DNA from: Escherichia coli | GTDB lineage: Bacteria > Pseudomonadota > Gammaproteobacteria > Enterobacterales > Enterobacteriaceae | DNA: 64,000 nucleotides | Reading direction: 5' to 3' (one strand) | Assembly: GCF_044324785.1 (NCBI RefSeq) | Contig: NZ_CP172127.1 | Shown: in pieces, positions 1-9,000 of the stretch | How positions within the stretch are numbered: the first letter of the stretch is position 1 | Layout: every line of letters starts with the position of its first letter | Position numbers: made by a program

Positions 1-3000
1 GTACTGGCGGCGCTGCGGGCCAAAGCGTTCCAGCAGGCTATGCAGCTCATCACGTATCTCCGAGGCGTAGTCGAACATCCGCGCATGGCCGCGCTGGTAT
101 TGCGAGAGGACGTACAGCAGCAATAGTGGTTTATGCGGCGCACGCTGTTCGCCTTTGCGCCAGATGGTGATGTTCTCGATCGCGTGTTGCAGGGTCGTGC
201 TGGAGGGCATAGCGTTACATTGGCAGCTAAATAAATGCGATGATGCTCGCAAAATCCTTGCCGATCAACCTACCAGATGCGGCGATTCTACGTGGATCGC
301 GATTTAATTATCACTGCCAGTTATTTGTTCGAAAAGACCATAGCTTTCTATTTATACTCAAGCTTCGCGCCATCAGATAGCTATGTCTTATGAAAAAACT
401 ACCGGACCATTTATCCAGGGAATGCATCATCGCCGCCATTCGCGCTTACGATGCAGGCGTTGCGCATCAGTTTAAAAGCGCGCGTCTGTATGAGATCGAG
501 TTTGAGGGGCGTCGGTATCCTTCAAAAGCCATCGTCGGGTTAGCGGCCACGCTTGCGACGGGAACGGAATTTACCCCGGCGGATTTCAGCGGGGGGATTA
601 AATCAAAATGCGTGCGTCTGTTACTGGAGCAAGGATTTACGATCGCGTCGCAGGGCGCTGGCGATGACGAGGTTGCGCTTTTCCCCGATGAGGGGCAGAC
701 GACCATGGAGTACGTGGAAGGGGCGGCGTTGCAGGTGGTGGTCAATCGCTATGAGCGCGACCGTCAGGCTCGTCAGGCGGCGCTTCGCCTGCATGGCTGC
801 CAGTGTCAGGTATGCGGTCTGGATATGGCCAGCCGCTATGGCGATATCGGCCAGGGCTTTATCCATATCCACCATCTCATCCCGCTGGCCGGGATAAAGC
901 AGGACTACCGCCTGAACCCTGAAACCGATCTGATCCCGGTATGTCCCAACTGCCATGCGATGCTGCACCGGCGAGATCCGCCGTTTACCCCCGAAGAGCT
1001 GAAGGCCCGGCTGCGCCCCACAGACTGACATCCGACAGCGCTCGCTTTAATTACATCAAACACACCACAAACCCCACGCTACCTTACCGGTAGCGTGGGC
1101 CCACTCTCTTTTACTTATCCCGCGTCTCGCCAGCCTCCCAGCTGTAGCTGCCATCGGCCGCTAAGCTATCGCCCAGCTCCTGATACTCGAACTGATAAAA
1201 CTCAGCCTGGGTGCCGTACCCGGCGTAGTCTACCGCCGCCAGGCCGACGAACGCCCCGGTAAAGAACCCGCCGTAGCTCTGCAACACATAGTCATCGGAC
1301 AGCACCGCGGCATCCAGCTGGACCGGGATCTCGGTGAACGTCACGCCATCGAAGCTGTATTCATAGCTGTAGGTCTGCTTGCGGACTTTGGTCCGGAACC
1401 AGACGTATTCCACGCCGTCCGGCACCTTGATGGCGTTATCTTTCAGGTACGACGTGTATTTCCCGCGGTTATTTTCGCCGACTTCGATGACCTTGCCGTT
1501 AATTTCATTCCAGGTCAGGAAGACGAAGCTCCAGTGGCGGTCGTTATAGTAATTCGTTAACCCGGCCATCTGCTGGTAGCTGAAGGGCTCGAATTTCACC
1601 TTCACCGCGGCGTCAAAATAGAAGGCCTGCCAGCGGCGGGCAATCAGCGACAGATCATGCGTATTGGCTAACGAGCCCTGGCCGATTAAGGTTAATTTGC
1701 CGTTACCGGTGGTGCCCATTTTGGCCGTAAACGGCACCCGCAGGGTATTCCAGTTCGGGTCGAGGGCTGGCGACGTAAAGTCATCCTGCTGGCTATTATC
1801 GCTGGCGCTTTCGGTGAAGATGGCGTCTTTCGGTCCTTCGACGAAGGTTTTCCCGCCGTGACCGCCTTCAATACGCGGCCAGCCCTCGTCATCCCAGTAC
1901 ACTTTCTGGATCGCGGTTTCCCGGCCGAGGGTTGACCAGCCGCGCGGGTCGTAGATGGATTCCCCCGGGCGATTCCACGGCCGGGCGCAGAGCGAGGCGT
2001 AATACCATTCGCCTTCCGGGGTGGAGACCAGCGCGCCATGGCCCTGTTTCTGGATGTAGCTGTCCGGGGTGTCGACGTTGGTTAAGAACACGTCGCCCGG
2101 CTCGGTTTCAAAGCTGTCGGCCTCGAGGGTTTTCGACCGCGCCACCACCTCCTGGTGGGTAAACACGGTGCCGCCCTGGGCGGCAAACAGGTAGTAGTAG
2201 CCGTTCAGTTTATAGAGGTGCGGCCCCTCGACCAGCGCTACGGCGGTGCCGCGGTAGATGGTGCGCGCGGTTTCCGGCATTAACTTCAGCGTGTTGGTAT
2301 CCAGCTCCGTTAAGGTAATGCCATCGAAGGGGTGATGGTACTCCCGGTGATCCCAGGTTTGCTGGACGATATATTTCCGGCCATCGTCGTCATGGAACAG
2401 CGAGGCGTCAAACCCGACTCCGTTCAGCTTGATCGGGTCGCTCCACGGGCCCCGAATATCCTTCGCGGTGGTCAGGTAGTTGGTCATGTCTTTGAAGGCG
2501 CCTTCGGTGACCTTCACATCGGTATACACCAACCAGAATTGCCCGTCGGCCCAGGAGAGCGCCGGCGCCCAAATGCCGCCGGAGGAGGGGTTGCCCTTCA
2601 TGTCCAGCAGGGTGGTGGTGGAGAGCGGCGAAGGCAGCAGGTTCCAGTTTTTCAGGTCTTTCGACTCATGTAAACGCACGCCCGGAAACCACTCAAACGT
2701 CGAGTTGGCAATATAGTACGTATCCTCGACGCGAATAATACTGGGGTCGGCATTAAAGCCGCGTAATATCGGGTTTTGAATAAGTGACATTTCATTACAC
2801 CTTTTAAAATGGAAAGTGACGAATCGGTCTGATTTATAATTTTTTTAACTACACGCGGATCTCATCCAGCTGACGGTTGATGTCGGTAACATGTTTATCG
2901 GAGATCGGATAAACCTGGATAATCACCATCGAAATAGCGGCCAGCGCGATCGGGATCCACACCGCGGTCATAATGATCCCGTCGATGGCGCTGGCGCTCT

Positions 3001-6000: not shown

Positions 6001-9000
6001 CGAAAATCTCGTCAATACCTATATCTTTGGTTAAATTTGGCTGACATGCCCCTGCGGGGGCATGTATTCCGCCGTGTGCCCGCTGCCGGGAAATAGCGTT
6101 TATTTGTTCGTGTTGTATTTATGCTGTCTGTGCCGAAAGGCTATCTGTTTGACTGTCTATAGAGGAACAATCCGCCGCGCGGATGGTTCTGCCATTGTGC
6201 CACCTTTTTAATATCAGTGAGGGAGGGCGAGTAGCGATAATTGTGTAATGCCTCTGTGACCGTACAAAATAAAAAATAACTTGTTCTGATGATAGCGACA
6301 TATTCTGTCAGCTCAGAATAGGCTGGTTATTGTCTGAATAAAATTAACCTATATTGAGAAACTCATGACAATGATAAAAAAACTTCCATTAACCATGGCG
6401 GTTATCGCCGCGTTTTTTCCGCTTACCTCTGTAATGGCGCAAGAATTTACTCAGGAACAGATCGACGCCATCGTCGCCAAAGCCGTTGATAAAGCGCTGG
6501 CCGACCGCCAGGCGAAAATTGACGCCGCGGCCGACAAAAAGGTCGACGTCATTACCAACCCACAGACCACCGCCGCCTCGCCGGATATGGCCATTCCGTT
6601 CGGCCTCAAGTTCAGCGGCTATGCCCGCTATGGCGCCCATTTCCAGACCGGCGACCAGAAATATGTCGGCGTCGACGGCTCCTATAACGGCGCCTCGGCG
6701 ATCGGCCGTCTGGGCAACGAAAGCAACGGCGGCGAATTCCAGATCAGCAAAGCCTTCAAAAGCGCGCAGGGGGCTATCTGGGATCTCAACGTCATGTTCG
6801 ACCACTGGAGCGACGAGGTTAACCTGAAGAAGGCCTACGTCGGCGTCACCAACGTGCTGGAATCCAATCCCAACGCCTATATCTGGGCCGGCCGCGACTT
6901 CCACCAGCGTCCGCAACAGGGGATCAACGACTACTTCTGGATGAACCACGACGGCCAGGGCGCCGGGGTGAAGAACTTTGATATCGGCGGCGTGCAGTTC
7001 GACGTGGCGGCGGTGTCGCAGGTGAAATCCTGTAGCCCGGAAGTGATGGCCGACGAGACCAACCCGTCGCGTATCACCTGTACCGGCAGCTCCGACACCG
7101 GGGACAACGGCCACTACGCGCTGACCACCAAAACCCACAACATCAAGGCCGGGCCGATCGACGTCGAGGTGTACGCCAACTACGGCTTTGACTCGAAGGC
7201 GGTGGACAGCGACGCGCGTCTCGAAGCCTGGCAGGGCGGCCTGGTGCTGAGCCACACCAACGACAGCGGGGTGAACAAGGTGATCCTGCGCTACTCCGAT
7301 AACTCGGATAACAGCGTCTACAACAAAACCGACGACCTGACCACGGTCTACGCTAGCTTCGAGGGCAGCCATAAGTTCACCCAGCAGGCGCAGGTGGAAT
7401 ATCTGCTGGCCTTCCACGACTACGACAACGGCAAAGATAATACCGACAACCGCAAAAACTACGGTGCCATCGTGCGGCCGATGTACTTCTGGAACGACGT
7501 GCACTCCACCTGGCTGGAAGCGGGCTACCAGCGCGTGGACTACGACCAGGGCGGGGATAACCACGGCTGGAAGCTGACGCTGTCGCAGAACATCGCCATC
7601 GGCATGGGGCCGGAGTTCCGTCCGATGCTGCGCTTCTACGTGACCGGCGGTCAGGTGGACAACGAGCATACCGCTAAGGTCAACGGCACCAAAGACCAGC
7701 AGCTGGATTCGCTGAACGTCGGCGGGATGTTTGAGGCGTGGTTCTGATGCGATAGCGTTGTCGAAGGAGCGTTCCCGGCTGGCGCTACGCTTAGCCGGGC
7801 TACGACTGGTGCGCTCCATTTATGCCGGATGGCGGCATACATGCCTTATCCGGCCTACGTTTCTGAGGAGGCCTGCGGGATACCCCCCAGGCCCGGCAGG
7901 CGCAGCGCCGCCGGGCAGGACACTTCAAGCTCCATACCTGTGGTTGTGCCGGATGGCGGCATAAATGCCTTATCCGGCCTACGTTCCTGAGGAGGCCTGC
8001 GGGATCCCCTCCCAGGCCCGCGCAAGCGCAGCGCCGCCGGGCAGCTGGCCCAGGTTCCCTCAGTTCACCGTCAGGCGCAGGGCAAGATCCTGCGGGTAGG
8101 GGTCAAAATAGTTCTGCGCCTGCAGGTAGCGATCCGGATACTCGGCCAGATAGTGCTTAAGCAGCGTCAGCGGCGCGAGGATCGGCAGCAGCCCGGCGCG
8201 ATAGTTGAGGATCACCTCCCGCAGCTCGCCGCGCTGGCGGCTGTTCAGCTGGTCGCGGAAATAACCCTGAATATGCATCAGCACGTTGGTGTGGTTTTTC
8301 CGAGAGGCGGGCCGCTTGAGGATCGCCATCAGCTTTTCGCGATAGACCTCGAAGAAAGCCTCCAGATCCTCCCATTCATGCAGCGAGGCGACGAAGGGGC
8401 CGATCTCGCGGTAGCCCGCCTGGTGGTGAGCCAGCAGCTGCAGCTTGTAGCGGCTGTGAAAGGCCAGCAGGCCGTGGCGGGTCAGGCCGCGGGCGCGCAG
8501 GGCGTTGAGTTCATGCAGGGCGAAGACGCGCTCGACAAAATTCTCCCGCAGCAGCGGATCGTGCAGCCGGCCATCCTCTTCCACCGGAAGCCACGGGTAG
8601 CGCGCCATCAGGGCGCCGGTAAACAGCCCCACGCCTTCCTTACGCCCGCGATTGCCTTTTTCATCATACAGCCGCACGCGCTCCATCCCGCAGATCGGCG
8701 ATTTGGCGCAGACGATAAAGCCCGACAGCTCGCCCAGGGTTGCCAGATGGGCGTTGGCGAAATCGGCCATCTTCTCCGTCACATCCTCGTGCGGGGCGTG
8801 GCTGAAGCGCATGCGGATCTCCCCGACCGGGGTCTGCACCAGCCGGAGCGCCGGGCGGGGAACGGGCAGGCCGATCGCCATCTCCGGGCAGACGGGCTTA
8901 AACGCCACCCACTGCGCGAGCTCATCCATCACAAAGCCCATACGCTTATGCCCGCCGTCGAATCGCACGGCTGAGCCGGTTAAACATCCGCTGATCCCAA

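Follow-up and report, generated by a model that had tools for sequence, protein, structure and literature searches.

Here we describe a four-gene block, xynB-xynT<>xylA2-porin, in a 64,000-nucleotide stretch of Escherichia coli DNA (contig NZ_CP172127.1 of assembly GCF_044324785.1; hereafter the window), and consider it probable that this block is a Klebsiella pneumoniae locus that has been brought into a tRNA-associated genomic island of E. coli, where it would support the use of xylosides under host regulation. The block adds a new example, from E. coli, to the known xynTB type and represents an ordinary, largely known kind of sugar-utilisation locus; of mild interest are its predicted regulation in trans by the host XylR and a porin belonging to an uncharacterised clade.

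Gene identities were established from a list of open reading frames (ORFs) and from profile searches with Pfam, TIGR and NF models. They bear out the original prediction, made from the sequence alone, of a cluster comprising a GH43 beta-xylosidase, a GPH symporter, a xylose isomerase and a LamB-type porin: all four genes are intact and occupy positions 1111 to 7747 as proposed. XynB matches both GH43 (E = 4e-89) and GH43_C2 (E = 4e-54). Its phmmer matches include the solved beta-xylosidase 9HE8 (E = 4e-289) and the classical two-domain GH43 xylosidases 1Y7B, 3C2U, 2EXH and 1YIF (E = 1e-147 to 1e-174) from Clostridium, Selenomonas, Geobacillus and Bacillus, and the catalytic-site motifs FNADPS, GFDAS and VEGPH are kept in the alignment. 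XynT, encoded in the same orientation as XynB across a gap of 58 bp, scores 297.6 bits against TIGR00792 (cut-off 231), and XylA2 scores 708.6 bits against the equivalog model TIGR02630 (cut-off 533) and 784.6 bits against NF003998. Purifying selection acts on each of the four genes wherever it is retained, the ratio of nonsynonymous to synonymous substitution rates (dN/dS) being 0.02-0.09 overall (xynB 0.04-0.06, xynT 0.02-0.04, xylA2 0.06-0.09 and porin 0.06-0.08).

The block lies in a segment of about 10.4 kb that is 96-98.6% identical to chromosomes of the K. pneumoniae complex, with identical gene order, and in blastn comparisons with ten K. pneumoniae-type loci every alignment ends at 9628. 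This gene order is very common among K. pneumoniae chromosomes. In CP125156.1, a K. pneumoniae chromosome misfiled as a plasmid, the block recurs in the same order at 96.7% identity (HNH nuclease, GH43, symporter, xylA, porin, ybgA-like gene, DUF3833) and is followed, beyond DUF3833, by the Klebsiella genes DUF2878, CFA-synthase-like, DUF1365 and cus. The exact XylA2 protein is present in 5514 blocks of a public assembly collection; among the ten contexts shown, one is that of E. coli I2, eight are replicons of 4.9-5.4 Mb or large contigs with Klebsiella gene order, and in the tenth (GCA_046569665.1) the downstream Klebsiella genes have been lost to transposon insertions.

Composition points the same way. 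The G+C content is 55.0% in the block and 56.7% over positions 1-9600, as against 49.7% over positions 9601-64000, and that of third codon positions (GC3) is 69-82% in the four block genes, 62-79% in the K. pneumoniae core xyl genes and 44-55% in the xyl genes of K-12. The block was originally called GC-rich and attributed to a higher-GC enterobacterium, and a comparison of its composition with that of the host was proposed as the check; it proved unlike the E. coli core xyl genes and like those of K. pneumoniae, which lends strong support to acquisition from such a source. The level of identity, the shared gene order and the Klebsiella-like GC3 together identify the donor as a K. pneumoniae-type chromosome. 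The accompanying notion of an acquired uptake module holds as to foreign origin and fails as to tidiness: what was acquired is a chunk of chromosome that also carries two nuclease genes (a phosphorothioate-dependent and an HNH nuclease), a ybgA-like gene and DUF3833.

Two vehicles of transfer were considered and rejected. A plasmid route was suggested by K. pneumoniae replicons labelled as a "550-kb" and a "5.37-Mb plasmid" that carry the whole block, and both show chromosomal context. A shared island backbone is disfavoured by the integrative-element genes beside the block, which are 66-72% identical between Klebsiella and E. coli; because of this low identity and their inverted orientation relative to the block, co-transfer on an integrative element is unsupported. 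The segment is flanked by remnants of IS3-family insertion sequences (ISs) on the left and by an IS66 element about 2 kb past the right junction.

In E. coli the block is rare, occurring in full in 11 of 5426 complete genomes. Positions 1-9600 of the window are 100% identical to the chromosomes of I2, ES1 and an ST38 isolate. Aligned to ES1, the window begins within an island, crosses an integrase and tRNA-Sec and enters core genes, from yicJ-yicI to the waa cluster, and the island extends about 16 kb beyond the window start, to setC. A tyrosine integrase (23526-24710, as in the ES1 twin) beside the tRNA-Sec gene selC (~25010-25104), accessory content and patchy distribution mark this as a tRNA-associated genomic island. 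I2 carries the same block elsewhere in its chromosome, near yghD. Directly across selC from the island stands the core alpha-xyloside operon yicJ-yicI (25340-29107); the beta- and alpha-xyloside loci are about 20 kb apart, apparently by coincidence.

The block has neither a xylulokinase gene nor a xylose regulator gene of its own, as first proposed. No homologues of XylB, XylR or XylFGH were detected in the window by tblastn with the K-12 proteins (E <= 1e-5), the annotations of I2 and ES1 show none of these genes over 20-31 kb upstream of the window, so that the second refutation originally proposed fails like that by composition, and no xylB lies within 10 kb of xynT in any enterobacterial xynT locus examined. 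The layout thus departs from canonical xylAB, the gene 3' of xylA2 being the porin gene. A search for complementation in trans, with a chimeric query composed of the island DNA, K-12 xylB and K-12 xylR, returned three separate matches (island, xylB and xylR) on 11 of 11 carrier chromosomes; the second xyl locus sought elsewhere in the genome is therefore present, in that all 11 carriers have core xylB and xylR, and one or other of these genes is found in 5424 of the 5426 E. coli genomes. K. pneumoniae likewise has a canonical core locus, xylR-xylHGF<>xylA-xylB, syntenic with that of E. coli and 4.5 Mb from the block. The absence of xylB and xylR from the block is accordingly explained by core genes that supply both in trans, in the E. 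coli carriers as in the donor.

Because the K. pneumoniae donor also has core xylAB-xylFGHR, the island isomerase is a paralogue, which we designate xylA2. Its product is 83% identical to K-12 XylA, 87% to the core XylA of K. pneumoniae and 46-50% to XylA of Firmicutes, and it clusters with the xynT-linked copies from Raoultella, Kluyvera and Citrobacter. XynT is 95-96% identical to its orthologues in K. oxytoca, K. grimontii and K. michiganensis, and XynT and XynB are 76-84% identical to homologues from Paenibacillus, Bacillus, Lactococcus and Streptococcus, those of the last two genera lying inside clusters that contain xylAB. Since XynTB is so close to Firmicute proteins but XylA2 so distant from Firmicute XylA, the module looks chimeric, apparently combining a Firmicute-like xynTB with a duplicated enterobacterial xylA and its promoter. 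In rich medium containing no more than 2% xylose, a K. pneumoniae xylA deletion mutant is reported to grow like the wild type (PMC12038955), a result that fits redundancy with xylA2, a point not addressed by its authors. A homologue of the K-12 small RNA XylZ was sought at the 3' end of xylA2 and rejected: the coding part alone aligns (73% over 71 nt), and the 3' untranslated region and terminator are unrelated.

The xynT and xylA2 genes diverge from a shared promoter region, as anticipated, and its length, first given as about 370 bp, required correction. The spacer measures 411 bp from the xynT ATG at 4303, which is preceded at 10 nt by a GGAG kept across genera, and 426 bp from the RefSeq ATG at 4288 (479 residues); 372 bp is obtained with the longest xynT ORF, from a GTG at 4342. 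On the xylA2 side the promoter is homologous to that of K-12 xylA, the two aligning over three elements, namely CRP site, I_A operator and -35 hexamer. The hexamer is adjoined by a pair of direct repeats with a spacing of about 21 bp, the CRP site TGCGAGATGGCTCACA is kept in all xynT-linked xylA copies examined, and the complete CRP/I_A/-35 block is conserved in 8 of 8 of them. Scored with an independent weight matrix, for which only the four core operators (K-12 and K. pneumoniae) were used, the xylA2 operator reaches 36.7; shuffled 64-kb windows yield no score above 18.1. We regard control of xylA2 by XylR as a well-supported prediction.

On the opposite side the conserved sequence GATCACAGAAGTAAAAAAACATAATTACTTAATTTAAAAACGTAATAGATTC stands in front of xynT. 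Across 30 loci representing more than 20 genera, no other non-coding stretch is as well conserved as the repeat block here, irrespective of the sequence upstream: the identity of the block is 0.91, as against 0.36 for the central spacer, and exceeds even that of the first 15 xynT codons. Its repeats keep the 21-bp phase of I_A and I_F, and a TCACA half-site stands in the same register to them as in the xylA promoter. With the independent matrix this operator scores 13.8, the second-best value in the window and one reached by 0.4% of spacer shuffles (P = 0.004), although it must be counted against our reading that the same score falls within the whole-window chance range (best score in shuffled 64-kb windows: mean 11.8, maximum 18.1). 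Control of xynTB by XylR is thus rated as probable. K-12 and K. pneumoniae share 88% identity in XylR as a whole and 87% in its DNA-binding part, and both an operator consensus and a looping model, in which one XylR dimer bridges I_A and I_F, have been published (PMC3561964). A XylR-like site before the core yicJ-yicI operon (25285-25323) was discarded, its score of 15.4 with a matrix partly trained on the island falling to 7.6, the level of chance, with the independent matrix. The transposon-bearing locus mentioned above (GCA_046569665.1, 7307-10001, in a 5.05-Mb genome) carries a block 99.95% identical to that of the window with two IS elements inside the xynT/xylA2 spacer, at window positions ~4423-4431 between the two predicted operators, which these insertions would uncouple.

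Taken together, these features lead us to the following model. Xylobiose and short xylo-oligosaccharides released by other xylanolytic organisms would pass the outer membrane with the aid of the LamB-family porin; XynT, by homology to its K. oxytoca counterpart a cation symporter for xylo-oligosaccharides, would import them; and XynB, by homology to characterised and solved enzymes, would act in the cytoplasm as an exo-beta-xylosidase, cutting them to xylose. XylA2 would add xylose-isomerase capacity, and core XylB would phosphorylate the resulting xylulose. Because a CRP site and a XylR operator face xylA2, and a CRP-like site and a XylR-like double repeat face xynT, co-activation with the core xyl regulon is predicted, with host xylose-bound XylR and cAMP-CRP switching the locus on, which would thus manage with neither regulator nor kinase of its own. 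A bolder version can be offered only tentatively: the porin clade might constitute a xylo-oligosaccharide-specific channel of Enterobacterales, and the spacer, with its duplicated xylA promoter and second XylR operator, might be a regulator-less plug-in that wires Firmicute-derived xynTB into any enterobacterial XylR/CRP regulon. Such a plug-in control region would explain how the block could work in E. coli lacking a xylR or xylB of its own.

The porin bears most heavily on how the block is to be read. PF02264 is matched in full (model positions 1-378 of 378, porin residues 83-460, E = 2e-72), and the score of 139 bits against the maltoporin model NF006860 (cut-off 394) indicates that the protein is not a maltoporin proper. 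Searches of the PDB returned distant LamB/maltoporin matches (E = 1e-14 to 1e-15), and ScrY was not found there at E <= 0.001. Between signal peptide and barrel, inspection of the sequence reveals an Ala/Lys/Asp-rich, helical-looking extension of about 55 residues, which we take to resemble the coiled coil of ScrY. Orthologues, 84-98% identical within the main clade, occur next to xynTB in at least 14 species loci and in three gene orders: porin-xylA<>xynT-xynB (K. pneumoniae and three Raoultella loci), xynT-xynB-porin (three Pantoea, two Serratia, Enterobacter sp. 10-1 and Kluyvera genomosp. 3) and porin<>xynT (Leclercia and UBA3516). In each, the porin is co-oriented downstream of a XylR-type promoter. 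Because the gene order differs between close relatives within the main clade, selection appears to act on the linkage itself. In comparisons with Serratia and Pantoea orthologues, synonymous divergence (dS) is 0.6-0.8 for the porin and about 2 for xynT and xynB in the same species pairs, which suggests either that the porin was exchanged more recently or that its codon bias is strong (GC3 82%).

Several observations nevertheless weigh against so integrated a function, and would suit an explanation in which the genes are neighbours by history, only xynTB matters, xylA2 is redundant and being lost, and the porin is a generalist beta-glycoside channel under its own regulation. In K. oxytoca, K. 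michiganensis and K. grimontii, at the same chromosomal site beside ybgA and DUF3833, xynTB is intact, of xylA2 only the first 16 nt are left and the porin is in fragments, and N-terminal xylA remnants survive in R. terrigena and Enterobacter sp. 10-1. The porin has a private leader of about 150 nt, kept in 13 of 13 xynTB-linked porin loci and in part in the paralogue linked to phosphotransferase system (PTS) and GH1 genes, and no XylR-type operator precedes it in the window or in 11 of these 13 leaders. A XylR operator of the porin's own was accordingly rejected, the two leaders that have one (Leclercia and UBA3516) having inherited it from the xylA promoter. Hairpins stand between xylA2 and the porin. 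More than 100 Klebsiella plasmids carry the porin downstream of lacIZY, apart from any xyl genes and accompanied by ybgA and DUF3833. In E. coli and E. fergusonii a paralogue with 80% identity follows a LacI-PTS-GH1 cluster of beta-glucoside type.

We judge this historical explanation unlikely all the same. Within one porin clade the gene order has been rearranged at least twice, and the orthologues have nonetheless kept their place next to xynTB; in Leclercia the porin lies directly downstream of a CRP and XylR control region of the xylA type. Where retained, xylA2 and the porin evolve under the constraint noted above (dN/dS 0.06-0.09), and the XylR/CRP promoter of xylA2 is intact in the eight loci compared. 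The loss of both genes in the K. oxytoca group, which kept xynTB, does indicate that they are dispensable for xylodextrin use, and K. oxytoca xynTB alone is reported to have allowed E. coli to use xylodextrins. We would class porin and xylA2 as accessories of xynTB that selection maintains but that can be dispensed with. The porin had been termed dedicated in the original prediction, and that epithet survives as regards its linkage to xynTB in three architectures and not as regards exclusivity, given its own leader, its occurrence on lacIZY plasmids and its PTS/GH1 paralogue; a dedicated role is no more than plausible.

Some further features of the porin region may be recorded. RNAalifold predicts for the leader a hairpin with three compensatory pairs and a helix formed by ATGGTTATTGTC with the Shine-Dalgarno (SD) and start region, which would sequester the SD; the ATGGTTATTGTC/SD helix is invariant, and weakened in the allele shared by K. 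pneumoniae and the window. On the conjugative plasmids noted above, which number more than 100 and reside in Klebsiella, Raoultella and E. coli, lacI-lacZ-lacY is joined 146 nt upstream of the porin, which is followed by the ybgA-like gene and DUF3833; the shared stretch, window positions 6219-9567, is 97% identical (for example K. pneumoniae pKPN-262, 4093-13167). The arrangement is a recombinant of the chromosomal region with lac genes in place of the xyl genes.

A different substrate for the module, namely arabinose-containing oligosaccharides or other glycosides, or a XylA2 acting mainly on another sugar, seems to us very improbable. Two-domain GH43 xylosidases of the XynB type are often bifunctional beta-xylosidases/alpha-L-arabinofuranosidases, which tells against an exclusively xyloside role, and GPH transporters have a broad glycoside range; one relative, 3C2U, is itself named "xylosidase/arabinosidase". 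XynB may have a side activity on arabinofuranosides. Yet its closest structural and sequence relatives are all named beta-xylosidase, the enzyme pair is linked to an equivalog-level xylose isomerase and to XylR-type operators, and in Lactococcus hircilactis and Streptococcus thoraltensis the xynT-xynB pair lies in clusters with xylAB and xylFGH.

Table 1. Coordinates of the acquired segment, its genes and its predicted control elements in the window
Feature	Coordinates	Strand	Basis
Klebsiella-derived segment; left end ~801 bp ahead of the window, right end a sharp junction at 9628	1..9628		blastn, GC
Terminator-like hairpin directly 3' of xynB, T-poor tail, strength uncertain	1073..1099	-	consensus scan; 11-bp stem, 8 GC pairs
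xynB, cytoplasmic two-domain GH43 beta-xylosidase, 559 residues, no signal peptide	1111..2790	-	Pfam
xynT, GPH-family xyloside:cation symporter, 484 residues from ATG at 4303	2849..4303	-	TIGR00792
Predicted XylR operator of xynT, two AAAAAC(A/G)TAAT repeats 21 bp apart	4372..4410	-	conservation, weight matrix
CRP-like site TGCTTCGAGGATCACA upstream of the xynT operator, weak left half	4411..4426	-	TCACA half-site register, cross-genus conservation
CRP site TGCGAGATGGCTCACA of the xylA2 promoter	4586..4601	+	aligns with K-12 PxylA TGCGAGCGAGCGCACA
Predicted XylR operator (I_A type) of xylA2, abutting the -35 hexamer TTGAGC	4602..4640	+	column-by-column alignment with K-12 I_A
xylA2, second (paralogous) class II xylose isomerase, 439 residues	4715..6034	+	TIGR02630, NF003998
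Two hairpins 3' of xylA2: first CATGCCCCTGCGGGGGCATG, second (6081-6098) a weak, terminator-like stem and T-rich tail	6045..6108	+	sequence reading, consensus scan
Conserved porin leader/promoter region, travels with the porin	6219..6364	+	plasmid homology starts at 6219; multi-locus conservation
LamB-family carbohydrate porin, 460 residues, signal peptide	6365..7747	+	PF02264

Beyond the block itself (Table 1), the two nuclease genes, encoding an SBD-HNH protein (phosphorothioated-DNA-binding) and a ScoMcrA_N/HNH protein, occupy window positions 1-1028 and about 800 bp upstream (17098-18785 of the ES1 locus). The position left of xynB is, in K. pneumoniae, a variable defence hot spot that holds restriction-modification genes, a BREX-like system or the type VI secretion genes Hcp/Tlde1 according to strain. 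Apart from two sub-threshold REP-like (naRNA4) matches, an Rfam scan of window positions 1-10000 returned nothing; these matches lie on the minus strand at 7813-7855 and 7943-7979, between the porin and the ybgA-like gene, and in the same intergenic stretch alignments to Klebsiella loci break at 7918-7944. Immediately after the right junction (window 9607-14092) a truncated haemagglutinin-repeat (beta-strand-repeat) pseudogene is followed by IS66/ISEc8, with tnpA, tnpB and tnpC at ~11759-14092.

If the model is correct, the block would enable a few E. coli lineages, represented by ST38-like isolates from humans and by isolates from poultry, to use xylo-oligosaccharides, which arise from the breakdown of dietary fibre, are sold as a prebiotic and, to our knowledge, cannot normally be used by E. 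coli. The locus would then offer a clean case of an acquired catabolic block that relies on a host regulator and a host downstream enzyme, while leaving the current view of xylose and xyloside metabolism unchanged. In K. pneumoniae, XylR-dependent xylose metabolism affects gut colonisation (PMC8908617). Lery et al. (PMC4068068) list xylA, xynT and xynB together among the genes of a K. pneumoniae genomic island, and Cronobacter genomes contain a separate xynT-xynB pair (PMC6267090); our search of an incomplete literature library found no paper on the linked porin or on the paralogous nature of xylA2.

Comparison with known systems places the block among several partial counterparts. With yagG-yagH of the K-12 prophage CP4-6 it shares a GPH transporter paired with a GH43-type hydrolase on a horizontally acquired element; that pair is not known to have a linked xylA or porin, and XynT, at 195.7 bits against a YagG-model cut-off of 610, belongs to a separate lineage. 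With the LamB (mal regulon) and ScrY (scr regulon) systems it shares a LamB-family barrel gene beside an inner-membrane transporter and a hydrolase, although the porin of the window is not a maltoporin and its closest paralogue (80%) lies in a PTS/GH1 locus. The Firmicute xylAB-xynTB clusters of L. hircilactis and S. thoraltensis are alike in XynT (78-84%), XynB (83-84%) and an adjacent xylA; they differ in having both xylA and xylB, co-oriented, and a XylA 46-50% identical to XylA2.

The K-12 xylAB/xylFGHR regulon (PMC3561964) provides the likeness in regulation: a class II XylA (83%) and a divergent control region, in which a CRP site and a XylR operator are directed at xylA and another pair of repeats at the transporter gene, a layout like that of the E. 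coli xylA/xylF region. The transporter side of the block, however, encodes a symporter for xylosides together with a xylosidase where K-12 has the XylFGH ATP-binding cassette transporter, xylB and xylR are absent in cis, and the operator on the xynT side is a prediction. Nearest of all is the xynTB pair described in K. oxytoca (Qian et al. 2003, as related in PMC8886126). Like xynTB of K. oxytoca M5A1, the window has a co-oriented GPH symporter and GH43 beta-xylosidase, and XynTB of the window is predicted to confer xylobiose and xylodextrin uptake and growth; in the K. oxytoca group at large the proteins are 95-96% (XynT) and 90-91% (XynB) identical to those of the window, in the same neighbourhood by ybgA and DUF3833. 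The window differs from that group in having an intact divergent xylA2 and an intact porin, and in carrying the whole within an E. coli island.

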